Shown here piece by piece: positions 10,826 through 61,009 of a stretch of 64,000 nucleotides of DNA. The notes under the pieces are model-generated. The model made no database searches, was not told where the DNA came from, and was given only the letters and a program-made list of their open reading frames with translations. Source of the stretch: Mobula hypostoma (lineage: Eukaryota); assembly GCF_963921235.1 (NCBI RefSeq), contig NC_086108.1:67520001-67584000 (forward strand), in the 5' to 3' direction. A program made the translations under genes and the position numbers. The stretch's first letter is position 1, and each line of letters begins with the position of its first letter.

Positions 10826-12029
10826 GATGGTTCAAGGAAATCAGAGTAAGGAAAAAATTACAATTATCACACTAAAGCATAGAAACATTTACTGTTAGCA
10901 AAGGCCAGATACCTTTACATATGGGACAAAGAGGATTACCTATGAGAGATCCATTTAAACAATGAACTGAGCAAAAGAGGTTTTCTTCTGCAAAACTAAC
11001 AGAACCATGCAAGTGGTATGTTTGCATCTGGCCACCAGCAACCAATTTTGTCATTTATGCACAGATTCCTTTGTTAATGCACCAACACTTTATTGTAAGA
11101 TGAGAACAGGTTCGTGAACTGCACTCTGATAATTGTCACACTTTGTTGGAGCTGAGCGTGAGTTGCAAGAAATCATTGAGAATTAGAATCATTCACCACT
11201 AGGTGATGTCCTTCAAAACGAATTAAGTGGATTTTTAAACCCCACCCCCCGGCTGGTTCACATCATGGAGGAACAAGGGAGAGTTTGATCAGGTCTGTGC
11301 AAAAGGTCCTTCAACAATTAAGATACAGAATCTTGACAAGTAGGGTCTTATGGAATCTTAAGACATTGCACAGTGATAAGGATCAGTCCATAGGGTCCAA
11401 AGCTTGACAGATTAGTTAGAGACTTACCCAGTAGCGGCCCTGGTCCACAGTTATGTCGAAAAGATCTCGTTATTCTGGAACTTCCCAGTAATATTCACTC
11501 CTGGGACAACTTAGTCCAAATTTCCTCATACTGAGTGGATTTATACGAAAAGGCCAAGAAATTGCCATGATCATATTCTACCTTTCAATCACCCAACACT
11601 GAAAGAAAACATAAACAGAATTAAATTTATTATCACTGAGCTATGCTGTGAATTTTATTGTTTTGTGGCAGCAGTACGTGCATGGCATAAAAATAGCTAA
11701 ATGAAACAAAACAAACAAATAAATAAATAAATAAATAGTGCAAAAGAGGAATAGCGAGGTAGTGTTCATGAATTCATGGACCACTCAGAAATCTGACGAC
11801 AGGGAGGAAGAAGCTACCCCTGGAACACTGAATGTGAGATTCGGACTCCTGCATCTCATTCCTGCTGGCAGCAATGAAAAGAGGGCATGGCCCAGATAGT
11901 GAGGGTCCTCAATGATGGATGCTACCCTCTTGAGACACTATATTTTGAGGACGTTCTTGATGGTGGGGAAGGTTGTGCCCATGAGAAGGCTGGATGAGTC
12001 TACAACACTCTGCAGCCTCTTTCCAAAAG

Positions 12030-12965
12030 ACATATTGTAGGAGCAGAATTAGGCCATTCAGCCCATCAAGCCTGCTCTGCAATTACATCACTGATGATTT
12101 ATTATCCCTCTCAAACCCATTCTCCTGCCTTCTCCCCATAATCTTTGATACCCTTACTAATCAAGAACCTATCAACCTCTGCTTTAATTATACCCAATGA
12201 CTTGCACTCCAGAGCTGTCTGTATCAATTAATTCCACAGATTCACTACTGTCTAGCTAAAGAAATTCCTCCTAATTTCTGTTCTAAAGGGACATCCTTCT
12301 ATTCTGAGGCTGTCCCTCTAGTTCCAGACTCCCTCAGGATAGAAAACATCCTCTGCATGTCTTCCCTATCAAAGCCTTTCAATACATCATTGGTTTCAAT
12401 GTAATCGCCCCCATTCTTCTAAACTCCAGTGTGTACAGGCCCAGAGCCATTAAATGTTCCTCATACATTAACCTTTACATTCCCAGATCATTGTCGTAAA
12501 CCTTCTCAGGACCCTCTCCAATGCTAACAGATACTTTCTTGGAAAAGGGGTCCAAAAATGCTCACAGTACAGTCTGACCAATGGCTTATAAAGTCTCAGC
12601 ACTGCATCCTTGCTTTTATATTTTTATCCTCTCCAAATTAATGTTAGCATCGCATTTACCTTCCTTACCACTGACTCAACCCACAAGTTAACCTTTAGGG
12701 AATCCTGCATGAGGACTCCCAAGTTCCTCTGCACCTCTGAAATTCAGAATTCAGTAAATAGACTATGCCTTTATTCCTTCTACCAAAGTACATGACCATA
12801 CCCTTCCCTACATTATATTCCAACTGCCATTTCTTTGCCCATTCTCCTAATCTGTCCAAGTCCTTCTGCAGTCCAAACTGTTCCTCAACACTACCTGCAC
12901 CTTCACCTATCTTCGTACTGTATGCAAACTTGGCCACAAAACCATCATTTCCACCATCTAAATCA
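12030..12965 (-). mobile_element. CR1-type LINE 3' fragment
   Basis: FVAKFAYSTKIG...LQKDLDRLGEWAKKWQLEYNVGK within ORF 12695-13363. Confidence 0.85.
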
Positions 12966-13096
12966 ACGTTCAAAATAAATTTATCATCAATGTGCGTATG
13001 TGCTTCCATGTACAACCCTGAGATTTGTTTCCTTGTGGGCATCTTTAATAAATCCAGTACCATAATAAAATGAAAGAAAGATCTCACCCAATAGCG

Positions 13097-32102: not shown

Positions 32103-32231
32103 TAACTTTTATGTGCAGTTTTGTCAAGGATTTTCTCAAATTTTAGAGGAGACCATTCAGCTATCATGCTTGTTCCAGATTATTCCCATTCACTGTTCTT
32201 TCCCCATAGTGAATGTAATATTTGAATTCCT

Positions 32232-34725
32232 GGACCATAAGATACAGAGTAGAATTAGGCCATTCAGCCCATCAAGTCTGCTCTGCCATTTCATTCATAG
32301 GTGACTTATACCTGTCAAACCCATTGTCCTGTCTTCTCGTAACCTTAGAAACTCTTACTACTCGAGAGCCTATCAACTTCTGCTTTAAATATAAGACCAT
32401 AAGACATAGGAGCAGAATTAGGCCATCTGGCCCATCGAGTCTGCCACTCAATCATGGCTGATCCTTTTTTTCTATCTCCTCCTCAACCCCAGTTCCTGGC
32501 CTTCTCCCCATAACCTTTGATACCATGTCCAATCAAGCACCTATCAATCTCTGCCTTAAATACACTCAATGGCCTGGCCACCACAGCTGTATGTGGCAAC
32601 AAATTCCACAAATTCACCACCCTTTGGCTAAAGAAATTTCTATGCATCTCTGTTTTGAAAGGACACACCTCTATCCTGAGGCTGCGCCCTCTTGTCCTAG
32701 ACTCTCCCACCATGGGAAACATCATTTCCACATCTACTCTGTCTAGGAGGCCATTCACCATTCAAAAGGTTTCAATGAGACTCCCCCCCCCCCCCATTCT
32801 TCTGAACTTCAGTGAGTACAGACACAGAGCCATCAAACATTCCTTGTATGATAACCCTTTCATTCCTGGAATCATCCTGTGAACCTCCTTTGGACCCTCT
32901 CCAATGCCAGCACATCTTTTCTAAGATGAGGGGCCCAAAACTGTTCACAATACTTAAGGCGAGGCCTTACCAGTGCCTTATAAAACCTCAGTATCACATC
33001 CTTGCTCTTGTATTCTAGACCTCTTGAAATTAATGTCAACATGGTATTTTCCTTCCTTACCACTGACTCAACCTGCAAGTTAACCTTCGGGGTGTTCTGC
33101 ACAAGGACTCCCAAGTCCCTCTGCATCCCAGATTCCTGTATTTTCTCCCCATTACAAAATTGTCTGCACATTTATTTCTACTACCAAAGTGCATGACCAT
33201 GCATTTTCCAACATTATATTTAATTTGCTACTTTCTTACCCATTCTCCTGATCTGTCTAAGTCCTGCATCCTACCTGTATCCTCAACACTACCTGCCCCT
33301 CCACCAATCTTCGTATCATCTGCAAACTTGGCAACAAAGCCATCTATTCCATCATCTAAATCATTTATATGCAGCATTAAAAAGAAGTGGTCCCAACACC
33401 GACCCCTGCGGAACATCACTAGTCACTGGCAGCCAACCAGAAAAGGATCCTTTTATTTCTACTCGCTGCCTCCTACCAATCAGCCAATGCTTTAAATGTG
33501 TTAGTAACTTTACTGCAATACCATGGGCTCTTAACTTGGTCAGTAGCCTCATGTGTGGCACATTGTCAAAGGCCTTCTGAAAGTCCAAATATACAACATC
33601 CACTACATCCCCTTTATCTATCCTACTTGTAATCTCTTCAAAGAATTCTAACAGTTTGTCAGGCAGGATTTTCCCTGCTGACTTTGTACTATCTTGTCCT
33701 GTGTCACAAAATACTCCATCACCTCATCCTTAACAATTGACCCTTAACATCTTCTTGACCACTGAGGTCAGGCTAACTGGTCTGTAATATCCTTTCTTAA
33801 AGAATGGAGTAACATTTGCAACTTCCCAGTCCCCTGGCACCATGCCAGAATCCAATAATTTTTGAAAGATCATTTCTAATGCCACCACAATCTCTAACGC
33901 TGCCTCTTTCAGAACCCTAGGTTGCAGTTCCTCTGGTCCAGGTGATTTATGTACCTTTAGGCCTTTCAGCTTTTTGAGCACCTTCTCTCTTGCATCCACT
34001 TCTCTTCCTTCACACACTACAACATCAGGCACACTGCTCGTGTCTTCCATAGTGAATACTCATTTAGTACATCAGCCATCTCCTTGTCCCCTGTTATTAT
34101 TTCTCCTGCCTCATTTTCTAGTGGTCCTATATCCACTCTCATTTCTCTTTTATTTTTAACATACTTGAAGAAACTTTCACTATCCACTTTGATATTATCT
34201 GCTAGCTTGCTTTCATATTTCATCTTTTCTCCTCTAATGATTTTTTTTAGTTGCTCTCTGTAGGTTTTTAAAAACTTCCCAATCCTCCATCTTCTCAGTA
34301 ATTTTTGCTTTGATGTATGTCGTTTCTTTTGCTTTTACAATAGCTTTGACTTTCCTTGTCAGCCACGATTGTACTATTTTACTATTTGAATATTTCTTCA
34401 TTTTTGAAATACACGTGCCCTGCACCTTCCTCATTTTTACCAGAAACACATGCCATTGCTGCTTGTTGACATACCTGCCAGCAGCTCCTTCCAATTTAGT
34501 TTGACCAATTCCTCTGTCTTACAACTGTAATTTCCCTTACTCCATTGAAGTACTGCTACATCAGACTTTACTTTCCTCCTGTCAAATTTACCAGTGGCTT
34601 GGCCTCGAAAGCCACCTGTAGCAATGAACTCCACAGATTCTCCTTTTTCAGGCTAAAGAAATTCCCCCTCATATCTGTTCCAAGGGGACATCCTTGTATC
34701 TTGAGGCTGTGCCCTTCAGTCCTCT
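32232..34725 (-). mobile_element. Nested CR1 LINEs: a ~2.2-kb ORF2 fragment (~32393-34590) inserted into another CR1 3' end
   Basis: DVVYLDFQKAFD, VPQGSVLGPLLF, VAKFADDTKIGG, FFSQRVVNLWN. The outer copy breaks at ~32392 and resumes at ~34591. Confidence 0.85.
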
Positions 34726-35994
34726 GGCATCAGTCCCTTTTATAGGGAGGAGATTCTCCCTCCCCACTTTACATTCTGGGATGCATCTCTTCCACTTCTG
34801 AGCATCCCCATTCTGTTAAATAGTTCCTTTATTTTTAATGAATTCAATATTGCTATTGCCCCCTCCATTATTACAGCATTGGTAGCATCATCTTGATTTA
34901 CTAAAGGTGTACATAATGTTGTCATACCAGACTTCAGCCAAGCCCTCTGTTTCAACAATATGATTTTTGTCTTTAATCTCTTCTTTTTGTCTAGATTTTT
35001 GTCTCTAATCACTGGTTTACTCTTAAGATATTTATGGATGACTTTTCTTTTGTGTTAAGTAGTTTTATGCTAACTCTTTGCTCCTCTTTTTAAATCATCA
35101 ATGTAGTTGCCTATACTAAACTTTATTCTCTACTGCATAATGAAACCTTTTTAAACCTAATTCAGTTTTAATCTGACCTTGATCTTTTTTTACCCATCTC
35201 TTCAGCCCTTTGCCCTAAACAGGATTAACTTTAATGTTGCATTTAATGAAATGAATTGCCGCAAGCCATAGAATATTATTAAACAAAATGAGGAGCCACA
35301 TATTTGCATTGGCCTAATCATTTGTAAGGTCAATGCTTATTGCTCATAATTGTCCATGAACTGAGTGGTCTTCAAAACTGCTCAGTTCATGGACAATAAT
35401 AAACAAGACTCAACAGCATGCAATGAATCTGGAGTTGCATCTAAGCCAGAGATTGTAAGATTATCTTTAATAAAGCATATTAGGGAAAACTAGTACAACA
35501 ATCTGATTGTTTCATGAGCACTATTTCCAGATTATTTTAATTCACTTGTGGTTAAGTTCCTATCTGCCCTGTGGGGATTTGATCTTGACGCTCTATATTC
35601 CAAGTCAAACAATTAATAGTTTTGCTATGGCATTGCAGTCCTCAAGGTATTAGAATAGATGTCCAAGTGCTTGTCTGAGAGAAATATTTAATGTAGTGCT
35701 TTCCACAAAGAGTAAAACAGCAGTGTATTTTACACAGGGAATTCCGGAATAGCAGTCTCAGCCATGTTGTTAGTTTTCTACTGTATGTATTATGTGCAAC
35801 TTGCCTACCTTACATTAGACTGTCTGATATTTGTTTAGCTGGTCCTACATATTTCTGACCGATTCTTTGCTGCTATTTAGCTCTCTTTAATGCCTACACC
35901 ATGTTTTACTTCTTTAATATTTTATCACAATGTTCATCCCCTGGCAGAATAATTTAAACCCTTTTCAGTTAATGTTTCATTTTCTGCAAGTATT

Positions 35995-36475: not shown

Positions 36476-37350
36476 CAGCCTCAAACATGGTCACATTGCC
36501 CCAGCTATCTGAAAAACTCCCAGAAACACTTTCCTTTCACCAATCAATTATTCCTCCTAATGCTATATTCACTTATGCACAGTCTGAGAATTGTCTTGAG
36601 GTAACTACCTTAAAAGTCATGCTTTTTAACTCACCTGCTAATTCCTGAAAATTTTAATGTAGAACTTCAGAACTTCCGAACTTCCTTTCCGTAACATTAT
36701 GTCCTGTGTAGGTCACTGCATCTGGGTATATTGGGGGTTCACCCTTGTAACATTCTAATAATGCCCTGACTACTTCATGTTAGCTGCCAAAAAAAAATAA
36801 ACATGGCTAACTGATAAAAAAAAACTGGAAGAGATATTACTGCTATCTCAAAGTCTCTTAAAAAATAGTTTTATTTTTATGCTTCCTTTGATTGGCAGAC
36901 TGTTTATAAAGCCTGCTGCTTTCTAGACCAGACTTTAGTTTGAAGCTGCTTCATCAGTTAGGCAAATCAAAGAACTTTTAGTTGTTTATTTGCTTGCCCA
37001 TACCCGAATCAGGTTTATTATTATTTGTTTTTCTGTTATGAAGTTTACAAGATCAAATAGTTATAAAAGCTAGAAATAATGACATTAGCTCTACTGTCTT
37101 CATGATAATGATGATAAAATGCACAGGGGTAAATTAATACAGGAAACCTTATCTTCATACTAAAGAAAATAGAAAATACCAGTAAATGTTTATATTAGTT
37201 GGATAAATGCTTAAGAGTTGTAATCGAATAATTGAATAATGATACATTTCCACAATGATGCAAGTCACAAGGAAATGCATATATAATGACATGTTTAACA
37301 CTGGAACCAGTGCAGCATCTTGATTTTATCTGTTTTTACTTCGTGAACAG

Positions 37351-37455
37351 ATTGGGGCTTCTCTAATGTCCAGTAATGTTGGGAGTGGCCTGTTTATCGG
37401 TCTGGCAGGCACTGGAGCTGCAGGAGGCATTGCTGTTGGTGGTTTTGAATGGAAT
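37351..37455 (+). CDS. SLC5A9: SGLT4 coding exon 3
   Basis: [45 protein letters not shown]. Confidence 0.93.
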
Positions 37456-38709
37456 GTAGGTTTGGTTGATAGATTTACAAAATGCACACAAAATTGAATT
37501 CATAAACAACATATACTTTTAAATTAATCTATCATCCATTGTATTCTTGATCTTAGTTCAAAATCTATTCATCGAAATTTCAATTTAAATTTTAAATCAA
37601 TTGCTCTTTCTAAACATTAGCGGCTACAAAATAAAATCAACAAATCTTACAGTAATAAATCTTTGAATTTATTCATCACTGCACCCTTGTCATGATATAA
37701 TGTTTATTTGAATGTGAATTAATTACTCTATTGGAAGGACAATATTTTCACCTAGTACGGTGTTACTTGCATTGAAGAATGTGCAAACAAATCAAAATGG
37801 GATTAGAATGTCTTTACCTTGATTTTCTTGTAGGTCCTAGTACAAAATCCATGGAAAATAACAAAAATAATTATTTCAACCTAATATTCAAAGTACAGCT
37901 TATATATAAAAACATTTTGTTAATACACAAATGCTCATTCAAGCTTATTTAAATGACATATATTCAGTGGCCACTTTATTAGGTACAGCAAGCATCTGTG
38001 TCCAAGTGTAAATATGATGGATGCCACATTTAAAGTAGAAACCTGTAGTTTACTAATTGCTGACAGCTTGGAGTTCTGCTTTGGATAATCCCACCTCTGA
38101 GAAAACAGGCCGGAAGATAAAATATATTTTAAAATAATCAAGGGGTTTTATAGGATGAATAGTGTGCTGTATAATATGGGACTACTTTATGTTATAGGGA
38201 CAAGTTGTTGCATGCGCTATTAGGCACGTATTGATCTGTACGTGTGTGTTCAGTTCGGTTTCAGTCAGTAAAGAGCCCTGTTAACTTAGCTCCTCTCTCC
38301 AGCGTTTTTATTTATAGCTTTGTTGTGTAACCCGGCCACTTACACAACAAATTGGCGACGAGGTTAATGAACCTACATCATATCGGAGCGTCGTGTTTTA
38401 ATTGTTAATGACACTCAAAGAAGAGCACAAGGTAGGAGCCAAGGTAGAGCGAGGCTGCAAGTCCGAAACAAAGTGGGAGCACAGCTGGGGTCGGGAACGT
38501 CGGGAGACCAAGAGACACAGTTGGAACCGCAGCATGTCCAGGCGAGACAACAGCCAGCGCTGAACCCCAGGGACTGAGGGTCTGCCTGCCCCAGAAGGGA
38601 GATAAAAAGAAGCGACACACACAATAGATGGAGTGCACTCGTGGCGCTAGCAAAAAGGTGACCTGAGTCAAAAAAAAAGGGAGAACAGGGCTAAATTAAC
38701 ATAACAAAG

Positions 38710-39885
38710 ATGGCGATGATTGGAACCATTACAGCATTTGATAGTAGCATTGAAGACTGGGCAACTTACATTGAAAGAGTGGAGTTACGTTGTGAGGCTA
38801 ATGGTGTTATTGATGAAAAGAAAGACAGTGTTTTACTCAGTATTATGGGAGCAAAAACATACGGCCTGCTACGGTGCTTGTTAACCCCTGAGAAGGCAGC
38901 TGACAAAACGTTCAAGCAAATAGTAGACACTCTCCAACAGCATTTAAGCTCCAAACCATGGGTCATGGCTGAAAGATTTAAATTTCACAATCAGAATCAG
39001 AGCAAAAATGAAAGCATTTCTGAATATTGTGCAAATTATCAGAATATTGTCAATTTGGAGTGGGTCTATCGGATGCATTGAGGGACAGGTTAGTGTGTGG
39101 CATGCACTGTGAAACCACACAGAAGAACAGAAGAAGCTCCTGTGTGAAAAAGACCTTACATTCGAGAAAGTGCCAAACACCTCAATATAAACTGAAACAG
39201 TGGCACGGGGTGCTTCCGAGATACAACGAAAATCTCTGGAATATGCCACAAATAAAATGTCACTGAACAGAAATGAAGGAAAGAAATGTTACCATTGTGG
39301 GAACATGTCATATGACCCTGATGACTGTTGGTTTAAAGACAAAGAATGCAGAAACTGTGGCAAACAGGGCCACATTGGCAGAGTATGCAAAGCCAGTAAA
39401 TAGCAGAAAAAGGACAAAATACAGAGAGAGAAGAAACCCCAGAAAGGAAAGCACAACAATGTACACAAAATGGAAGAAAGCAGTTCTGATGAAAATGACT
39501 CAGACAAAAATGAATTGTCTTGTCTGCAACTTCACAGCGTGAAAGAGGCAGATGATTGAAGAGTAATAAGGATCACTCCACAAGTGGCAGGTGTGAGACT
39601 GAAAATAGAGTTGGACACAGGCTTAGCTTTAACAATGATCTCTGTACATGACTACAAACGACTATTTTTTCACATACCTCTGAAATGAACTAAACTACTG
39701 CTAAAGACTTACACAGGACAGAAAGAGCGTCACAAAGGTAAAATTAAAGTGACAGTGACCTACGGAGACAAAACACAGCAGCTGAACCTCTATGTACTGG
39801 AAAATGGAGGGCCACCATTGTTGGGACGTGAATGGCTCAGGAAAATCCACTGGGATTGGCACACCATCAAGGCACTAGTTGTGTC
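38710..39885 (+). pseudogene. Decayed Gypsy gag-protease
   Basis: EDWATYIERVE...LLSIMG, ALRDRLVCG, CYHCG...C and [29 protein letters not shown], with frameshifts and in-frame stops at 39401, 39557 and 39686. Confidence 0.85.
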
Positions 39886-39913
39886 AGCAAAGGAGGGCAG
39901 CTCGGCGGGGAAG

Positions 39914-40573
39914 ATGTCCGCAGCTCTCCTCTCACCTATTGTCAACTATTACAATGACAAGGAGGAGCTAGACAGCATCGACAATGAGGACGAACACAGT
40001 ATCTGTGGCCGTGACTCAGATGAAGAGGATGCAAGGGAGACAGATATTGCCAATAAGCAGGATGATGAAGACTATCTGGAAGTAAAAGAGCAGATGTACC
40101 AGGAGAAATTGACATCTCTCAAAAGGCAGCTACAGCAGTTACAGGAAGGCAGTTTGCAGGAGTATCAGAAAGGGATGAAGAAACTAGATCAACAATACAA
40201 GGAAAGAATACGAAATGCAGAGCTTTTTCTGCAACTGGAGACAAAACAAGTGGAAAGGAAATATATTAAAAAGAAGAAAGCAGCAGTGAAGGAATTTGAA
40301 GATAAAAAGATTGAGTTAGAAGAAAGAAAAAATGATTGAGAATGAGAGGCTAACAATGGAACTCACAGGAGATTCTTTGGAGGTAAAGCCAATAATGACC
40401 AGGAAACTAAGGAGGAGACCTAATGACCCTGTTCCAATTACAGACAAAAGACGAAAACCTGCACCTGCACAGCTAAATTAACAGATGAACAGATAAAGGA
40501 AGATCTGTGAACTCTAAATAAGCTTAAATCTCTGAAAAGACCAGCATCTCTGTCTTCTCCTGAACAATTTCCT
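39914..40573 (+). pseudogene. SUDS3: Processed (intronless) partial copy of SUDS3, a Sin3-HDAC complex subunit
   Basis: MSAALLSP...[60 protein letters not shown]...[13 protein letters not shown]. After a frameshift it continues [49 protein letters not shown]...TDEQIKEDL*TLNKLKSLKRPASLSSPEQFP. There are no introns. Confidence 0.92.
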
Positions 40574-41374
40574 TGGGAAAGATCCATGAAAATTGAGCAT
40601 CCTTTAAAAACTCTTGGACAGAATCAATTCCATTCAAACAGAACAGCTTTCGCACAAGGTAAATCTTGAACCAATCATTTCCTCTATTGAGAATCATACA
40701 CTTAATCCTTTGCAGGGAAGTTTCTTTTGCACATACATAGTTTGAATCCTCAGCCTATGTGTCTTGTTTTGCTCAAAGAAGTTGGGAAACAGCATCAAAA
40801 CAGAGGCCAATTCTGGCAACAAATTGTAAGGTTTCTATTGTATTTTCACACTTGTGCTGAATGTGCATCTGAAGGAATTCTCCCTTTTGAGCCAGGTAAG
40901 CAATCTTTTCTTGCACTGTGCACAACTGGGATTTTTCATACATAGAATCCTCCAAACAATTCAGAAACAGTGCATAGAATTCAGTCTCATTTTCTTGACC
41001 ACGATTTGTTTTTTGAACTTCAGACAGATAGCACTGCAGGTAATCCTTAATATCAGCGAAACTGTACTTTAGCAGCAGCTTAAGAATAACGGAACGAACA
41101 ACAGGATTTCGATCAACTGCTTCATCAAACAGCGAAAGATTACTAGCAAAGTGCTGAACTTTCTGTGAGTCATTGGATTGCCTCGACTTTTAAATAACGA
41201 GCAGAGACAGCAGATCACCAACCACTTCTTTTTTGGTGGCAAGTCATTTTTGAAGCAGACCATGGAAACCAAAGCTACAAAAAATATATCACACCTCTTG
41301 CGAAATATAGCTAATTTTGCTACAGCTTCACTTATTTCTTCTGTTACTGCCGGTACATAATCATCATCTGGAGA
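40557..41374 (-). pseudogene. RNF213: Processed (intronless) internal fragment of RNF213 (mysterin), the region just C-terminal to the RING
   Basis: Manual minus-strand translation: PDDDYVPAVTEEISEAVAKLAIFRKRCDIFFVALVSMVCFKNDLPPK/EVVGDLLSLL...FDEAVDRNPVVRSVILKLLLKYSFADIKDYLQCYL...TEFYALFLNCLEDSMYEK...TIETLQFVARIGLCFD...NDWFKIYLVRKL...WIFPKEIV. This matches recalled RNF213 motifs (TPVIRSVILKLLLKYSF, LFINCLEDS, NDWHRVYLVRKL, WVFPKDVV). One frameshift and three stops. Confidence 0.88.
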
Positions 41375-43364
41375 AGTACCGCACCGTGGGCAGAGTCCTC
41401 CCCCAGAGACTTGCGTTATAAATGGGTCTTAGACCAATCATAAAAAAAAGGCTTGTTATAATTTTATATTATTATGTTACTTTGTTATAATTTGATATTA
41501 TTAAGTTACTAAGTAAACAATTGGTAGGCATTTGTATGTTAAAGGTAAACATATTTGTTTAGCGTAGTGCCCCAGTAAAAAAAAGTTGATAGACTATTAA
41601 AATACAAGTGGAGGAGTGTACTGTATAATATGGGACAACTTTATGTTGTAGGGACATGTTGTTGCATGCGCTAATAGGCGCGTATTGATCTGTACGTGTG
41701 TGCTCAGTTCAGTTTCGGTCAGTAAAGATCCCTGTTAACTTAGCTCCCGTCTCCAGCGTTTTTATTTATAGCTTTGTTGTGTAACCCGGCCACATACACA
41801 GCAAGTATGAACAGCCATATTTTACTTCTTTATTCTGACAAAAATTGCTTTAAATTGTGTGTTAAACATGGAAATGCCAATTAATGAGGAACCAGTTTAG
41901 GTTTCAATAGGTACATTTAATGCCAGAGAAATGTATACAATATATATCCTGAAATTCTTTTTTTTTGTAAACATCCACGAAAACAGAGAAGTGCCCCAAA
42001 GAATGAATGACAGTTAAAGGTTAGAACCCAAACCCCCCCTCTCGCAGCTCCCCCTCCCACACACAAGCATCAGCAAGGCAATGACCCCACCACCCCCACC
42101 AGCAAAAAAGCATCAGCGCCCTCCACCGAGCACTCAAGCCTGCAGCAAAGCATCAATAAACACACAGGCTTGCAGTATCCCGATGACTACTCATTCACCT
42201 GTTAATTTGACATACCGCAGGCTCTCTCTCTCCCTAATAAGGGAAAAAGAGGTTTCCCCGTTTCACAGCGAGAGGGGAGACATTACAAACAACGCTCCGA
42301 TTTACGATGTTAAAAGTTTGTTGCGTCGCCTTTTCTGAACTCTGCTCCATACAGTCGGCCCCAGAAAGGCTCAGATCTCTGGGCACACAACCCACAGCAG
42401 CTAACCCGCTGCTCTCGGTGTTCTGTATTCTCTCGCGACGCCTCAGTCATGGGCTCCTGCCTAGAATCAGCATGTCTCCAGAGCCACAAAAAAGCAACGT
42501 GTCCTTATGATGGAAAAGCTACAGAGCAGCAAAAGCAAGTCAGGATAATCGGACAGTATCAAACCAACACAGGACTACCCGTACGCAGAATCAACAGACC
42601 CAGACATATTTTTTGTCTTGTTAGATGTATCACGGTGTCTCAGCTTTATTGCTGAGCTCTTTATTGCCACAGCTTAATCTACAGGCAACTATTGCTATGA
42701 GATACAAAATGACCCATCAGCTGACTAATTTTAGGTACCCTCATATTTTCCATATCAGTCAATTTGCTTCGCATTAGTCTGCAATGCTGTCTTTACTGAG
42801 ATATCTCAATATATTCCACACTGGTGACTCAGAAGTGTCAATGGTTTTTAGAATTTTTTGATACAATAGTATCACACCCACGTTATAGTGAGTGCCACAA
42901 TGCTACTATTCGACAGCAGACTTCAAAAAGAAGCATTCTGCTCCAAAATTTGTCATGGAAAGTGATTACAGTATTAGGTGGACAAAGGATGGGGTTCAAG
43001 GATATGCTCAAAGTCTCCTTGAAGATTTTCAACTACCCCACTAAATCCTGGAAATATCTCTCAAAGTGAAAAAAGCACCTTGGGTGGCTTTGAGAACCTC
43101 GGGGTTATACATTGGAAGCATAGAAAAATCCCGCATACACACAGACTATCCACACCTGTCCTGATGAACATCACCTAATCTTCCTGTATTAGTCTCATTT
43201 GCCATACTCCTAAAATTCTACATGAAGTCACATTGGCTGTTTGACAACTGAAAAACAATAAGCCCTAGGGGTCACTTGGTATTTCTGCTGAAGCCCTAAA
43301 TCGTGGTTGAGAAGAATTTCGGTCGCAATAAACAACCTTATCTTCCTCGTGTGGGAAGAGGAAA

Positions 43365-45916: not shown

Positions 45917-46081
45917 GCTACTTGGCTTCTTGTGGCACTTGGTTGGATTTTTGTTCCAGTGTACATTGCTGCTGGTGTGGTTACTATGCCTGAATATTTA
46001 CAGAAAAGGTTTGGAGGACAAAGAATCCAAATCTACATGTCTGTATTATCTTTAATCCTGTATATATTTACTAAGATATCG
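45917..46081 (+). CDS. SLC5A9: SGLT4 coding exon 4
   Basis: [65 protein letters not shown]. Confidence 0.93.
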
Positions 46082-47277
46082 GTAAGTGAGACATTATAAG
46101 TGCCTGGAGAACCCTTATCTCTTGTACTAGAAATTTAGTGAACATTGTTGAGGGTTGTAGGAGTGTCCATTACCATGAAAAATATAGTGTTTTGGTTATT
46201 GAAAACTCAGCACACGTCTGCCGGAAATGTTTCTAATTTCACCAGTTACAGGGGTTGGTGTGCCCTTTAGTACGTTCCATTATGTGATTGTATTTTGTTT
46301 TGAAATGCTAAAGCAGGGTAAAATACTGCTGTATGTCAGCTGATTAAGAGCATGGTTCATATTGATGGGAGGAAACAGCAAATCGAATCGTGTCCATGGG
46401 CATTATAGTGAAGAGATGATCAGCAGAAAATATAATTTGCTACAGACCATTGTTTGACATGTTATCTAGAAATCATCCTAATATTTTGTTTTCTGGAATG
46501 TATATCCATAGTGACAATACAGGCAGATTAGCTAGTTGCAAACTTCCACATTTAACAATTCTTTATGAAATGATAAATGGTGAATTAAACAAGTTTAGGT
46601 TAAATACTGCAAGTTCTCCCTCATACATTCACCTCAGAAGAGAAGAGTTCAATTGGTAATACCCTACCAATTGGGCAAGTTATACTGGACAAAGCTTTGA
46701 ATACATGTGTTATGGTCAACAATAATAAGACATGAATAATTCTACAAATAATTCTCATAATGATTTTTGAAGGGATGGATAATCTTGGGAATAAACTTGC
46801 CATGCATTGAAATAATCCGGGTTGTGTCCTCAAAATGGTATGGAGCTATTATCATTTTCCTGATTTTCACAAGACAGGCTGTTATTAGATCCATATCTTA
46901 GCAATTGAAATTAAGAATAATTTATTCATCCATGAGGTTTATGTAATGGAATGCCAATTTATTATTTATTAAGTTTACATCAAAAGCTTTTTGAGGATGT
47001 TGAACTTGTTTAGATAAAATAAATAATCTCATATAAATTGCACATTGTATTCATAATTTCAAAATGTGAAGTATTATTTTTATGATATCAAATACATTTG
47101 ATTAGTTTTTTGTTGTCGTAATCATTCTTTATTCAATAACTTAATTCTGATGTGGTATTTTCACCAATGTCTTTTTTAATGGTTTCCTCAATTTTCATGT
47201 TCTTTCTGTCTTCAATAAGTATATTAGTAATGTAGATTATATTATTGTTTATGTCTTAATTGTAATCCTTCTTTCAG

Positions 47278-49419: not shown

Positions 49420-50655
49420 TACTCTGGTGTGTAGTCCGTATGGTCCAGGTGACTTAACTATCTTCAGATCTTTCAGCTTCCCAAGCACCTTCTCCTTAGT
49501 AATAGTAACTACATTTCTGCCCCTTGCACTCTGAAATTTTTGTCTTACTGCTGGTGTCCTCCACAGTGAAGACTGATGCAAAATACCTATTAAGTTTGTT
49601 TGCCATTTATTTGTCCCCCATTACTACTTCTGCGGCACCATTTTCCAGTGGTCCGATATCCACTGTCAGTTCTCTTTTACTCTTTATATATCAGAGAGGG
49701 CTTTTGGTATTCCCCTTTATATCATTGGCTAGCTCACCTTCATATTTCATCTTTTCTCTCCTTATGGCTTTTTTCGTTCCCTTCTGTTGGTTTTTAAAAG
49801 ATACCCAATCCTCCAAATTCCCACTAGTTTTTGCTACATTATATGCCCTTCTATTTTGCTTTTACACTGGCCTTGACTTCCCTTGTTAGCCGTGGTTGCC
49901 TTATCCTCCCTTTAGAATACTTCTCCTTTAATATGTAAATATCTTATAGCCTTATAGAGAGAAAATAGATTAGCTGTGATGAAATAGTGGAATGGACTCA
50001 ATGGCCTAATTCTGCTCCTATATCTTATGGTCTTATCCTGTACCTTCTGATTGCACCTAGAAACTCCACCCATTGTTGTTCTGCCATCATCCCAGCTAGT
50101 GTGCCTTTCCAATAAAATTTGTCCAGCTCCTCTCTTATGCCTCTGTAACCCTCTTTACTCCATTGAAATACTGATACATCTGACTTAGCTTCTTCATCTC
50201 AGACTGTAGGGTAATATCATATTATGATTACTCTTTCCTTTATCTTAAGCTCCCTAATCAAATCTGGTTCATTACACAATATCCAATGCAGATTTGCTTT
50301 TGTCCTAGTGGGCTCAACCACAAGCTGCTCCAAAAAGCCATCTTGTAGCCATTCTACAAATTCCATCTCTTAGGATCCAGCACCAACCTAATTTTCCCAA
50401 TCTACCTGTATATTGAAATCCACCATGACTATCATAACATTGCCCTGTTTATACCTTTTCTATCTTCTGTTGTAATTTGTATCCCACAGCCTGTCTTCTG
50501 TTCAGAGGACTGTATATAACTCCCATCCCTATCAGGGTCCATTTACCCTTGCAGTTTCTTAACTCTATCCACGAGGGTTCGACATCTTCTGATCCTATGT
50601 CGCCTCTTTCTAAGGATTTGATTTAATTACTTACCAACAGAGCCACCCACACCCC
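49420..50655 (-). mobile_element. CR1-type LINE ORF2 internal fragment, degenerate
   Basis: VLGKLKDLK..KSPGPYGLH motif; similar to 33700-34590. Confidence 0.7.
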
Positions 50656-52090
50656 ATGAATATAAAAGTTCAAGGGAAATTCACAATTGGTATAATATTT
50701 AGATGTCAAAATTAGGTGAGATGAAAATAATATTTCATTTATCTCTCTTATGCGTAATGGAATGACATCGATCTTTGGTAATAACCCAAAAAAAAACATT
50801 ACTACAAACCAACAGCACCAGTTGTGTCTCACCAGTTTTATTTTTATTTTTTATTCCACTGACATTCAAGACATTCCTTGTGTTTATTTCTTCTGATTCA
50901 ATTAAGTCATCTTTTGTTTTTCTATTTGATATTCTTTACTCTTTAAATTTACAGAGCAGTTTCTACATTTAAAATTTGGTTTAAAATTCTCCAAACACTA
51001 TGGGTACTAGAAATCTGGAATAAAAACAGAATATGCTGGAAAAGTTTGGCAGGTCAGGCAATATTTGTTGGGTAAAAGAGCTTATGTTTCAAATCAAATG
51101 CTTTTCCTCTTGTTAGCAGTATGCAATTAAGTTCTTGAAATCCTTAAAATTACTGAGTTAAATGATGCTCAGTGATTTCTTTATGAATATTTTAAATCTA
51201 AATTGGTTTACATATGCCAATTCATAACCTAAATTAGGCGTTATAATAAGATTTTAAATGCAATTAAAATTTTATAGGTTGACAACTTTGCTCAGCATTG
51301 ATGCATTTTTTATCAGTATGCTACAGTGGGTTGGTGCACTAATACATGGAGCACAAGAGATAGACATGCGTTTGATTTTTACTTTTCTTTACATGGTAAT
51401 TTCAAGATAAAAACATTATTATGAAGAAGAACCGAGGGTGGGGGGGAAGCATCAGTAGGTCATAAATGAATGAGTTGCTCTGAGGCATTTCTCCAGCAAA
51501 CAATTCCAGAAATGTACAGAAATACAAATGCATGAACAGACATCTGGAGCTAAAGGAAGACTTGGCCTCCACAGCCATCTGTGACAATGAACTCCACAGA
51601 TTCACTACCCTTTGGCTAAAGAAATTGTTCCTTATCTGTGTTCTAAAGGGATGTACTTCTATTGTGAGGCTGTCCACTCAGTCTAGGTCTTTCAAAATTC
51701 CATAGGTTTCAATGAGATGCCCACTGATTCTCCTCAATTCTGGTCACTGTAAACTGCATTGAGTGTACAGATAAGCTGTAGTGAAAAGCAGAATGGAAGT
51801 GCAGAGAAAATAGGATAAATGTAAGAAGGATGTAACAAGGTAGCTATAGTTGGTGCTGCATCGGAAATCTGTGTTGGAGTCTTAGAGTAGCTAGTCATAA
51901 ATGAAATTAAAAGAAGTTGAAAACTAATCTATATTGCACACAGATCCACAGCCTGAGCTCAGAAAGATTTATCTTCATTTGAATTCTTCAGGGAGTAACA
52001 TGACTACATTTACGGCAGATTTATTGCATACAATCTGGGATGATGTGTTTGAAAACTCAGTAAATGGGTACTTTGCCTTCTCGCTGGCAG

Positions 52091-55276: not shown

Positions 55277-57850
55277 AAGAACATAAGAACATAAGAAATA
55301 AGAGCAGGAGTAGGCCATCTGGCCCATTGAGCCTGCTCCGCCATTCAGTAAGGTTATGGCTAATTTGACCATGGACTCATCTCCACCTATCTGTCTTTTC
55401 TCCATAACCTTTAGTCATAGTCATAGTCATACTTCATTGATCCCAGGGGAAATTGGTTTTTGTTACAGTTGCACCATAAATAATAAATAGTAATAGAACC
55501 ATAAATAGTTATATAGTAATATGTAAATTATGCCAGTAAATTATGAAATAAGTCCAGGACCAGCCTATTGGCTCAGGGTGTCTGACCCTCCAAGGGAGGA
55601 GTTGTGAAGTTTGATGGCCACAGGCAGGAATGACTTCCTATGACGCTCTGTGTTGCATCTCGGTGGAATGAGTCTCTGGCTGAATGTACTCCTGTGCCCA
55701 ACCAGTACATTATGTAGTGGATGGGAGACATTGACCAAGATGGCACACAACTTGGACAGCATCCTCTTTTCAGACACCACCGTGAGAGAGTCCAGTTCCA
55801 TCCCCACAACATCACTGGCCTTACAAATGAGTTTGTTGATTCTGTTGGTGTCTGCTACCCTCAGCCTGCTGCCCCAGCACACAACAGCAAACAGGATAAC
55901 ACTGGCCACCACAGACTCGTAGGACATCCTCAGCATCGTCCGGCAGATGTTAAAGGACCTCAGTCTCCTCAGGAAATAGAGACGGCTCTGTCCCTTCTTG
56001 TAGACAGCCTCAGTGTTCTTTGACCAGTCCAGTTTATTGTCAATTCGTATCCCCAGGTATTTGTAATCCTCCACCATGTCCACACTGACCCCCTGGATGG
56101 AAACAGGGGTCACCGGTACCTTAGCTCTCCCCAGGTCTACCAGCAGCTCCTTAGTCTTTTTCACATTAAGCTGCAGATAATTCTGCTCATACTGTGCAAC
56201 AAAGTTTCCTACCGTAGCCCTGTACTCAGCCTCATCTCCCTTGCTGATGCATCCAACTATGGCAGAGTCATCCGAAAACTTCTGAAGATGTCAAGACTCT
56301 GTGCAGTAGTTGAAGTCCGTGGTGTAAATGGTGAAGAGAAAGGGAGACAAGACAGTCCCCTGTGGAGCCCCAGTGCTGCTGATCACTCTGTCAGACACAC
56401 AGTGTTGCAAGCACACGTACTGTGGTCTGCCAGTCAGGCAATCAAGAATCCATGACACCAGGGAAGCATCCACCTGCATTGCTGTCAGCTTCTCCCCCAG
56501 CACAGCAGGGCGGATGGTGTTGAACGCACTGGAGAAGTCAAAAACCATGTCCCTCATAGTGCTGGCTGGCTTGTCCAGGTGGGCGTAGACACGGTTCAGA
56601 AGGTAGACGATAGCATCCTCAACTCCTAGTCGGGGCTGGTAGGCGAACTGGAGGGGATCTAAGTGTGGCCTGACCATAGGCCGGAGCAGCTCCAGAACAA
56701 GTCTCTCCAGGGTCTTCATGATGTGGGAGGTCAATGCCACCGGTCTGTAGTCATTGAGGCCGCTGGGGCGCGGCGTCTTCGGCACAGGGACGAGGCAGGA
56801 TGTCTTCCACAGAACAGGAACCCTCCGGAGCCTCAGGCTCAGGTTGAATACATGGCGAAGTACTCCACATAGCTGAGGGGCACAGGCTTTGAGCACCCTG
56901 GTACTGACACTATCCGGTCCTGCAGCCTTGCTTGGGTTGAGACGTTTCAACTGTCTTCTCACCTGTTCAGCTGTGAAGCCCACCATGGTAGTTTCGTGTG
57001 GGGAAGGAGTATAGTCATGAGAGCAGGGTGGGGGACTGTGAGGAGGGGTAGGAGGGGAGGGTGGAATATGTGTTGGTTGGGGGCCGACAACAGATGGCTC
57101 GTGTGGGGGATGGGCAGGGGCCACAATGTCAAATCTGTTAAAGAACAGGTTAACTTCATTGGCCCTGTCCACACTGCCTTCAGCTCCTCTGTTGCTAGTT
57201 TGCCGGAACCCAGTGATGGTCCTCATCCCCCTCCAGACCTCTCTCATGTTGTTCTGCTGGAGTTTCCACTCAAGCTTCCTCCTGTACCTGTCTTTAGCCT
57301 CCCTGATCCTGGCTTTCAGGTCCCTCTGTATTGCCCTCAGCTCCTCCCTATTTCCATCTCTAAACGCCCTCTTTAATTCCCTTAATTCCCCTACTAAGCA
57401 AAAATCTATCCGGCCTTGTTTGAAATATATTTACTGGGGTAGCCTCCACTGCTTAATTGGGCAGAGAATTCCACAGGTTCACCATTCTCTGGGAAAAGGA
57501 GTTCCTCCTCAACTCCATCCTAAATCTAATCCCCAGAATCTTGAGGTTATGTCCCTTAGTTGTAGTTTCTCATATCAGTGGTAACAACTTTCCTGATTCT
57601 ATCTTATCTATCCCTTCCATAATTGTATATGTTTCTATAAGATCTCCTCTCATTCTTCTGAATTCCAGCAAGTACAGTCCCAGGCGATTCAATTTGTCCT
57701 CATAGTCTAACATCCTCATCCTTGGAATCAACCTGGTGAACCGCCTCTACACCACCTCCAAAGCCAGTATAAACTTCCTCAAGACCAAAACTGCAAACAG
57801 TGCTCCAGGTGTGGCCTCACCAGTACCCTGTACAGTTGCAGCATAACCCC
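55277..57850 (-). mobile_element. CR1 3' fragment (55277-55412 plus ~57374-57850) split by a Rex1-like LINE
   Basis: An (AAGAACAT)n tail is at 55277; the CR1 sequence resumes TTAATTCCCCTACT at ~57380. Confidence 0.75.
55413..57373 (-). mobile_element. Rex1/Babar LINE, 5'-truncated, young-looking RT
   Basis: ORFs 56291-57247 ([38 protein letters not shown]) and 55565-56164 (KGQSRLYFLRRLRSF); (TAGTCA)n tail. Confidence 0.9.
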
Positions 57851-58640
57851 CCCTCATGTTATAGTAATTTCAAGTCTGCATTTGGCTTCTTGAGCTCCCA
57901 TTAACATTACTCAATGACTTTTACGTAACTCTATCACATCCCTGCAAATGTAAACCTCAACATCTTTCCTCTTGCAGAACTGAACTCCTGTGGTTCTTAT
58001 CTCTTAACAGCAGCTTCTGTTCTAGAACATCCTCCCCTCTCACCAACACTACAATGTTCTCCTTCATCAATACTGCCACACTCTCTCCTCTCTTTCTACT
58101 CCCATCCTTCCTGGTACCCAGGAACGGAGACACGAGAGACTGCAGACGCTGGGATCTGGAGCAACAAACATTTGGCTGTAGAGTTCCTTCAGCAGACTGT
58201 TTGGAGTATCCACGAATACTTAGAACCCAATTCCTGCCCTTTTCCTTAGCCTGGTATCTTGTAATTCTCACAGCATCATAAAGCCACACGGTTACTCGGA
58301 GGTTGAGTGGAACCAGTTGCAATTGATACAGTGGCAAGTGAACTGACTTGCTAATATTAATTTTTGAATGTAATTTATTCTGAGCTGTTAGTTAATCCAT
58401 ACCTTGGCCTTCTGCATAAATTCTGTAAACTCATATTTTGAAATTGTTGAAGTATAATAGCAAGATCATGGTCTTTAAGACAGATTAGAACCAGCTTAGA
58501 ATTTATTCATATTCATAATGTAAAATATATTCTAGATATTAAGAAGTTGTGCTTCGTTGTAACTTTCAGATGAAATTTATGAATTTATTAATACAAGTTT
58601 GCTTGGTACATGGAAATAAAATGTGCCTTTTTGATTTCAG

Positions 58641-58846
58641 GTTTAAATAAAGTTGGTTGGTATTCAGGATTGGAAGAAAAGTACTTTCATGCAATTCCTA
58701 ACATTACTGTGGCAAATACTTCATGTCACATTCCACGTGCTGATGCTTTCCACATGTTTCGAGATCCAGTCAATGGTGACATTCCTTGGCCTGGACTCAT
58801 ATTTGGACTCACAGTACTTGCCACATGGTGTTGGTGTACTGATCAG
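58641..58846 (+). CDS. SLC5A9: SGLT4 coding exon 7
   Basis: TCAG|(G)[74 protein letters not shown]. Confidence 0.93.
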
Positions 58847-60412
58847 GTAAATCTCAACAGTCATCATGGAAAATTTAATAGCAATTAAAATTATTTGACC
58901 TCCACATGCTTGGATATCTCATAATTATTATGGAAGTTAACTATACAGTGTTTTTTTTTCCTTTTTCACATTTTGATTTTCCTGTTTAATGAGCAAATAT
59001 GCTGTCCATTCATAACATACAGCCAAATGAGTTCCCATATTGCTAGAACCCTAATGAGTAATTTAAGATTGAAATGTTTTTTCTTGGAAAAGGGTAGGTA
59101 TTAAACAAATCAGATTCTCTGTTGTGTTAAATCAATGTTATTATTGATGGCAATCTGGACTTCCTTGTATGTCCCTTGTTATTAGACTTGAAACTAATGC
59201 AGATGATAATAGCAGATACATGGTGAATTAATTTGTACCATATTTCTTTATTATCATAACAAGCATTGTCATAGTCATTGTCATAGTCATACTTTATTGA
59301 TCCCGGGGGAAATTGATTAGAAATATTAAGAATATACCCAACATTATTGCCAATGGAAGTGACACCTACTGGCCCTGAAATGATGATGACCTGAAATGTT
59401 TATTGTTGGAACTGGTATTTTCTGCTTGTTAGCCCAGAGTGAAAACACTAAGCCATTTAACGTTCACTAAATTACAACAGAATTCATTCAAGCTAATCAA
59501 AGATCCTCACCACGCCCCCACCCCCCACCTGGCTATGCTCTTTTCTTGCTGCTGCATTCAGGTACAGGAGCCTCAGGACTCGCACCACCAGGTTCAAGAA
59601 CAGTTACTACCCCTCAAGCATCAGGCTCTTCAACAAAAGGGGATAACTACACTCATTTAAGGACTCTTTTATCTCATTTTTCTCATGTTCGCTATGTATT
59701 GCTATTTATTTTTTATCTGCATTTGCACAATTTGTTTACAGTTTTTAGTTCCTGATGTTTACAGTTTACAGACCTTTTTACAGTTACTGTTCTATAAATT
59801 TGCTAAATACTGTATGCCTGTAGAAAAAGAACTTCAGGGTTGTGTGTGGCGACATGTATGCACTCTAACAATAACTTCTACTATGAACTTTGAACTTAAT
59901 TCATTCAGAGGATGTATGATGATATAATGTGAGAGTCAATGTCTCATTGTCCGAAAGGCAGTTAGAGCAAACCATGGGAAAGGTAGTTATATTGAATTTA
60001 TTGGCCTGGCTCATTATTTCCATTCCCCATTCTACAACCTCACCTCCTTTGGATTATGAAGAATAATTTCTTGGGGTCTTGATTGGCCAAGAGCCAAGTG
60101 ATGAAGTCTTGAATGGTGGCAAGGCCTCAGAAAACATGGCGGAGTGATAAAAGTGAGGAAGTACAAGACTTGCAGGTGAAACTCCTTTGAAAGTCTGGAA
60201 GCTGGTAAAATGCCTCCACCGGAGAACTTTTGGACTCCTTCAAAATTTCTGACATGGAATTAAATAAATCATTTGAAAGTGTTTGTAAATAACGGAAAAT
60301 ATAGAAACAATTATTGAATAAAAAGACATTACATGCTATTTTAATTCCTTCCTTCCAGTCCTACTGTCCCCATTCAATGAAACATTTGTAGATCTAGTGT
60401 GGCATTGGATTC

Positions 60413-60770
60413 ATAAGACCATAAGACATAGGAGCAGAATTAAGCCACTTGGCCCATCAATTCTGCACCCATATGCCATTATGGCTGATTTATTATCCCA
60501 CTGATTCTTTTCCATGTAACTTTTGCTAATCAAGAACCTATCAACCTCTTAAATATGCCCAATGACTTGCCCTCCACAGTCATCTGTGGTAATGAATTCC
60601 ACAGATTCACCACCCTTTAGCTAAAGAAATTCCTCCGCATCTCTGTTCGAAAGGGATATTAATGTATTCTGAGGCTGTGCCCTTTGGTTCTAGACTCCCC
60701 TACTATTGGAAACATCCTTTCCACATCCACTCTATCTAAGCTTTTCAAAATTCAATAGGTTTCAATGAGA
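60413..60770 (-). mobile_element. CR1-type LINE 3' fragment
   Basis: CATAAGACCATAAGACATAGGAGCAGAATT tail and CR1 3' body. Confidence 0.8.
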
Positions 60771-61009
60771 GCAGAATCCTATACATTATATAAGTCCTGA
60801 AGTGATGTCACTTACACTGACCAATGCCATAACCTCTTTGCTTGGCTACTCGAGCAGATGTTTGGTCATCCAATCCAATTCGATGGCTGGCATTGGAAAT
60901 CACCCCTACTGTAGAAATACTGGCTGCTTGCTGCTAACAGACCCTAATGACTTGATATGTTGTCCTATAATTCACATATAATTTACTTACAATTGTTTCC
61001 TTTCCTTAG

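Follow-up and report, generated by a model that had tools for sequence, protein, structure and literature searches.

Acutely transforming retroviruses carry gag-onc fusions, in which a host cDNA stands in frame behind gag, pol has been lost and propagation depends on a helper. The src gene of RSV and v-kit are mentioned in a study of crocodilian endogenous retroviruses (ERVs), which themselves captured KIT-ligand and nectin3, are present in 9 and 6 copies, respectively, and were reported to be under purifying selection (PMC4299795). LTR-mediated retrocopies, as described by Tan et al. (2016; PMC5131818), comprise partial mRNAs and multi-gene chimeras, and can be co-transcribed and re-duplicated. 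The Drosophila transposon TART-A, which is of the LINE type, carries sequence of nxf2 and acts via piRNAs (PMC7785250). Also, a survey of 244 genomes counted SUDS3 as one of the top five sources of retrocopies in cartilaginous fishes, and tied the abundance of retrocopies to non-LTR elements as well as to expression or selection; the accessible text of this survey names no LTR carrier for SUDS3 (bioRxiv 10.64898/2026.06.26.734816). No printed description of the element reported here was found in the literature searched, in which subscription journals were thinly covered and the supplements of the survey may list copies. The accessible text of a mobulid genome preprint does not mention SUDS3.

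The window, a stretch of 64,000 nucleotides from Mobula hypostoma, contains a non-autonomous Ty3/Gypsy LTR retrotransposon with the structure LTR-gag-pro-SUDS3(1-230)-antisense RNF213-LTR (features on the + strand unless stated otherwise). The element is 3.6 kb long and is bounded by two LTRs of 187 nt, at 38163..38349 (5' LTR, TG...CA) and 41617..41803 (3' LTR), which differ at 14 of 187 nt (K2P 0.079). A primer-binding-site-like motif, so named from its position, lies 3 nt past the 5' LTR (38353..38363), and a polypurine tract occupies 41606..41616. The N-terminal part of gag (38710..39127) is spread over three frames when aligned by tblastn with the open relatives P0177, P0181 and P0193, with two frameshifts between ~39030 and 39125. 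It is followed by the C-terminal part of gag with two CCHC-type knuckles (39128..39580; stops at 39401 and 39557), then by an aspartyl protease and a protease-RT linker (39581..39901; LDTG at 39611, stop at 39686). The protease matched Pfam PF13975 at E 7e-5, under the curated cut-off. Beyond it come 12 nt of captured SUDS3 mRNA leader, translated S-A-G-K (39902..39913), codons 1-230 of an intron-less SUDS3 (39914..40566), an intron-less RNF213 fragment captured in antisense (40556..41397, - strand) and an AT-rich 3' internal segment (41398..41605) with a short A-run near 41445. A TATAAA-like motif stands about 20 nt ahead of this A-run (41420-41452), and may be what remains of the 3' terminus of a captured transcript.

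RT, RNase H and integrase are absent from the element, SUDS3 starting at the usual place of RT, and no env was seen in it. The nearest relatives are Gypsy-type K02A2.6-like proteins. In the open relatives P0177, P0181 and P0192, gag, pro and RT form a single ORF, and P0175 and P0177 carry RT, RNase H and integrase domains; gag-pro of the window element is 78% identical to P0192 and 54% to P0181. The features expected of Ty3/Gypsy elements are present, namely TG..CA LTRs, a primer site, a purine tract and a gag-CCHC-protease region akin to that of elements with RT, RNase H and integrase.

The element is inserted in sense within an intron of a gene of the SLC5A family of sodium:solute symporters (Pfam), between approximate exons at 37348..37461 (SSF profile 12-49) and 45926..46084 (SSF profile 51-103). 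For a possible target-site duplication, the 5-nt flanks agree at 3 of 5 positions. Contigs running from the flank into the LTR at 38163 were found in run X1 (organism A, 0 differences) and in run X6 (organism B, 3 differences and 1 gap), and the insertion is common to these two organisms. The window copy is dead, its damage amounting to four frameshifts and four internal stops. Elsewhere in the window, the 5' flank holds a short bit of an unrelated, very abundant repeat (37955-37988; depth ~25000 in X2), units of 28 and 38 nt are repeated in tandem at 2531-2867, and several decayed copies of one dispersed repeat, probably of LINE type, occur at 12000-13000, 32200-34800, 49500-51800 and 57400-60800.

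An earlier note on this DNA, made from the letters alone, had proposed that the zinc knuckles, the protease and SUDS3 share one reading frame. Translation and frame arithmetic bear this out: the zinc-knuckle ORF (39200), LDTG (39611), the ORF at 39749 and the SUDS3 ATG (39914) lie in a single frame, whose only stops in 39200-40339 are the three then listed (TAG 39401, TGA 39557, TGA 39686) and a final TGA at 40337. In its two remaining frames, this interval contains 23 and 29 stops. Pfam recognized zf-CCHC and an aspartyl protease on the shared frame, both below their curated cut-offs, and Sds3 above. The linker ahead of SUDS3 is indeed read through without a stop, but its first five letters belong to the element and not to the SUDS3 leader. 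The capture joint is most likely at 39901/39902, between two codons and 12 nt ahead of the ATG, because two contigs of run X2 depart from the window sequence past 39901 (8-letter loose end) and because the alignment to P0192 places it there. Relative to the open relatives, the gag start at 38710 is cut off from the shared frame by the two frameshifts, so that in the window copy the polyprotein is already interrupted before the first of the stops is reached.

The in-frame joint is ancestral and not private to the window copy, since in a predicted gene model of Hemitrygon akajei, P0326 (XP_072884955.1), from which most of gag-pro is missing, gag, the protease end, the identical SAGK linker and SUDS3 are all read in one frame. 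This was the sole protein with both gag-pro and SUDS3 parts among the 350 fetched. P0122 was considered as a gag fusion and rejected, its long N-terminus not being gag-like. Stop 39401 is lacking in at least 99% of the aligned depth in all four runs, and stops 39557 and 39686 stand opposite ordinary residues in the P0192 alignment. The frameshift at 40326 is lacking in 701 of 760 of the X2 depth; for X6 the listed share without it is 11 of 1652, and for X13 it is 13 of 229. The founder probably encoded an open Gag-Pro-SUDS3 frame, which would have been translated. The ancestral polyprotein of the earlier note is hence upheld as regards the joint (P0326, the open relatives and stop 39401), but not as regards an engagement of silencing machinery. 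Its caution that an in-frame joint is a 1-in-3 draw also stands, and the shared frame still counts as a single event, because all copies descend from one capture.

No whole Gag-Pro-SUDS3 protein occurred among the best 120, 71, 120 and 150 matches of three homologue searches and one HMMER search, which is weak evidence, since annotation discards transposon ORFs. A metagenome scan gave 2 loci among 184 candidate stretches, neither of them across the joint. No contig bridging 39870-39920 was present among the 30 pieces listed (of which there were 20715 more), and this has no bearing on expression.

SUDS3 is a subunit of the Sin3L-HDAC silencing complex. Its captured part is 89% identical to ray SUDS3, and does not end at 40339: it runs on in other frames to codon 230 (40566). 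It carries a 6-nt deletion near 40023 and a family-wide deletion of 24 nt near 40311, is frameshifted near 40326 and again near 40478, and has a stop at 40508. The second frameshift and the stop fall within the Sin3-binding segment (residues 196-219, structure 2N2H), and the C-terminal capped Tudor domain is not present. Residues 137-144 are missing in all 9 copies that span the site, window included; only a parent-type contig of X1 has the corresponding 24 nt, which the three DNA-type runs all lack. These eight residues lie inside the solved coil (4ZQA, residues 81-163), to which a role in dimerisation is ascribed (PMC8800102). The Sin3-binding segment is almost unchanged in most annotated full-length copies. 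Host SUDS3 proteins of Mobula and Pristis are identical over residues 1-214.

The RNF213 fragment measures 842 nt and corresponds to about residues 4071-4353 of the human protein (PDB matches at E 9e-27, 7e-12 and 5e-7). This antisense capture had been omitted from the earlier note. Its ends were set by the parent-type contig 7 of X1, which covers 40556-41397 with 66 differences. It overlaps SUDS3 by 11 nt, the SUDS3 side being placed from the parent protein, and this overlap has the look of the mark of a template switch. Inside the insert lies a cryptic intron of 128 nt on the element strand (40896..41023, +), with a splice donor and a pyrimidine-rich acceptor. All three DNA-type runs (X2, X6 and X13) contain an intron-less DNA form with the joint 40892>41021 (GT..AG), at ~12, 11 and 2 times flank depth. 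A DNA form without this element-strand GT..AG intron shows, indirectly, that the RNF213 cargo has passed through transcription and recopying as part of the RNA of the element. RNF213 depth is 26-63 times flank (subfamily ~55), a figure to which host RNF213 exons add. Also, two Hemitrygon akajei loci, P0184 and P0326, annotated as YBX1-like, are SUDS3-YBX1 chimeras with SUDS3 residues 1-50 or 1-57, and YBX1 is a further capture by the same element family. The subfamilies spread after truncation of SUDS3, the RNF213 type without the Tudor domain and the YBX1 type without nearly all of SUDS3.

The window copy is not alone. Eleven annotated SUDS3-like or SUDS3-YBX1 models were found at separate loci in four ray species (4 in Mobula hypostoma, 3 in M. 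birostris, 2 in Hypanus sabinus and 2 in Hemitrygon akajei), the LTR context of most being judged from common marks. Depth points to hundreds: summed contig depth over flank was ~750, 720 and 350 for gag-pro in X2, X6 and X13 and ~410, 430 and 160 for SUDS3, about half as much, ratios that give an order of magnitude only and no copy number. Non-autonomous copying continued after the capture, because all 9 spanning copies have the deletion in common and because of these depth ratios.

Selection on SUDS3 was assessed by scoring 11 copies (10 proteins and the window, with ends trimmed to the SUDS3-like part and P0326 not included) against 157 orthologues. Changes occurred at 150 of 1670 conserved sites (9.0%) vs 66 of 651 variable ones (10.1%; Fisher P 0.38), whereas the orthologues changed at 1.4% of conserved and 39% of variable sites. 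The SUDS3 copies are thus without visible constraint, and would be decaying neutrally. Among well-sampled residues, arginine had changed most often (23%), which fits the prediction of CpG decay. In the window copy, 12 amino acids have changed, where LTR divergence would give 12-13 (ratio 0.92-0.97, range 0.58-1.77), assuming that both LTRs date one insertion. Changes common to most copies concern residues 43, 187 and 271, all in columns at least 99% conserved, a pattern with P 7e-4 under orthologue-like constraint and 0.38 if neutral. Against neutral decay speak the private changes, which lean to variable sites (5.1% at conserved vs 7.2% at variable sites, P 0.059), the mostly in-frame deletions within SUDS3 and the frame-keeping contig 5 of run X1 (both described below), and the near-full SUDS3 ORF retained in P0006, P0008 and P0009, although ~16% would be expected by chance from substitutions alone. 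The decay of copies says little on the replicating founder lineage, since any element copy would decay once inserted; the founder differs from the parent at a handful of residues, too few changes for more than low power.

We propose that SUDS3 is a passenger in a Gag-Pro-SUDS3 element and decays like junk, rather than being a tool, a reading to which we give a probability of about 0.65. A single template switch in an ancestor of mobulid and dasyatid rays would have joined a spliced SUDS3 mRNA, from its leader onwards, to a Ty3/Gypsy element directly past the protease, SUDS3 taking the place of RT, RNase H and integrase. This joint would have been in frame by chance, so that the gag-pro ORF of the founder continued into SUDS3 and was presumably translated. 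Keeping its LTRs, primer site and purine tract, the element reached, by depth, hundreds of copies, presumably via the enzymes of intact relatives acting as helpers. SUDS3 would have lost eight coil residues early, and later have been cut by antisense RNF213 in the window lineage or by YBX1 in the stingray, while decaying neutrally within each copy.

Run X1 is RNA-like: it contains intron-less parent-type contigs, its flank depth equals that of X2, and gag and the unrelated repeat stand at 4% of their X2 level. Our guess is that X1 is an RNA run; its contigs cannot rank expression. Contigs identical to the ends of the window copy had the depth of the flank (14 and 10), in keeping with their being carried along as host intron. 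Contig 5 of X1 (394 nt, depth 238) belongs to another copy, 85% like the window copy (32 differences in 216 nt), and is placed at 39323-39538, at 40024-40044 and, by reading of its loose end, from ~40246. It runs from the zinc-knuckle region into SUDS3 and leaves out the protease, with indels of +3, -474 and -201 that all keep the frame, and its joint is absent from the joints listed for the three DNA-type runs. It is doubtful that the family includes either a working Gag-Pro-SUDS3 anti-silencing device with a mis-dimerising HDAC-complex subunit or an old copy that is now a host gene encoding a Gag-zinc-knuckle-SUDS3 chimera.

A selected anti-silencing fusion, in which the protease frees a near-native SUDS3 that binds Sin3, assembles badly and weakens Sin3L-HDAC silencing of the element, we consider unlikely. 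Release by the protease would be plausible from the position of the joint at the RT start of the open relatives, the almost intact Sin3-binding segment of the full-length copies would suit such a role, the common changes at invariant sites could be adaptive, and SUDS3 is present at about half of the gag-pro depth. Against this, the copies are without constraint, subfamilies spread that lack the Tudor domain (RNF213 type) or the coil and the Sin3 segment (YBX1 type), and none of the 350 fetched proteins has whole gag-pro plus SUDS3. Thus, the suggestion that the fusion engaged silencing machinery or was selected is not supported, in view of the missing constraint, the eight lost coil residues and the spread after SUDS3 truncation.

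The frame could instead have been favoured mechanically, translation stabilising the RNA or aiding cis packaging, or the coil helping the protease to dimerise, with the chromatin role irrelevant. The in-frame joint would agree with this, as would the family deletion of 24 nt and the deletions within SUDS3 of other copies, 5 of 6 of which are in frame among the joints listed (P 0.057 against the 43% of 5-nt repeats that are in frame). However, of the short repeats in the sequence 39-55% are in frame anyway, and the antisense RNF213 capture closes the frame, yet its subfamily spread; we regard this proposal as improbable. Another proposal dispenses with protein: copies would feed small RNAs that lower the mRNA of host SUDS3, a silencing-complex subunit, and, in antisense, of RNF213. 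It predicts neutral protein decay, and has a precedent in TART-A and nxf2 of Drosophila (PMC7785250, PMC13534243). It is nevertheless very improbable, ray SUDS3 not changing fast (see the Mobula and Pristis proteins above) and YBX1 and RNF213 not being silencing machinery. Finally, ordinary LINE-made SUDS3 retrocopies, one of which landed in an LTR element by chance, would agree with the tie between non-LTR elements and the abundance of retrocopies in vertebrates (bioRxiv 10.64898/2026.06.26.734816), but this scarcely credible reading is already largely refuted, as RT, RNase H and integrase are replaced and not interrupted, the joint also occurs in a species of another ray family, and one deletion in 9 of 9 spanning copies is unexpected of independent retrocopies.

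Among vertebrates, the family is an example of LTR-mediated retroposition on a large scale. Should a single LTR family with one captured mRNA account for most SUDS3 copies of rays, the rank of SUDS3 in the survey would be due to the amplification of a transposon, and several ray genes annotated as "SDS3-like" or "YBX1-like" would be copies of the element. The family also offers a natural series of mRNA captures, useful to ask whether captured cargo is ever selected.

Like gag-onc retroviruses, the ray element has gained, at the expense of pol, a host cDNA that continues the reading frame of gag, and it would depend on a helper. Unlike them, it has no env, moves by germline retrotransposition and carries a cargo without sign of selection. 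The label "v-onc-like" is therefore apt for the host cDNA in frame with gag, but not for a retroviral origin or env, given the Gypsy K02A2.6-like relatives and the lack of env, and it remains an analogy. TART-A, as described in PMC7785250, is likewise a transposon with part of a host silencing gene, but it is a LINE acting via piRNAs, whereas the ray element is of LTR type and is known from DNA sequence and contigs. The crocodilian ERVs of PMC4299795 are, similarly, old vertebrate LTR elements that multiplied with captured host mRNA; they are retroviruses with a separate cargo ORF and reported purifying selection, whereas the ray element is a Gypsy element with a fused ORF and no constraint seen. 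The LTR-mediated retrocopies of PMC5131818 share with it a partial spliced mRNA in a discontinuous LTR element, several parent genes per locus and recopying as a non-autonomous element: SUDS3 1-230 (~650 nt) and RNF213 (842 nt) lie between LTRs from which RT, RNase H and integrase are absent. Their short common sequence at the switch point may have its counterpart in the 11-nt overlap at SUDS3/RNF213. Unlike those retrocopies, for which the accessible text describes a few insertion sites, the ray family numbers in the hundreds by depth and extends over two ray families, and its host ORF is continuous with gag-pro.
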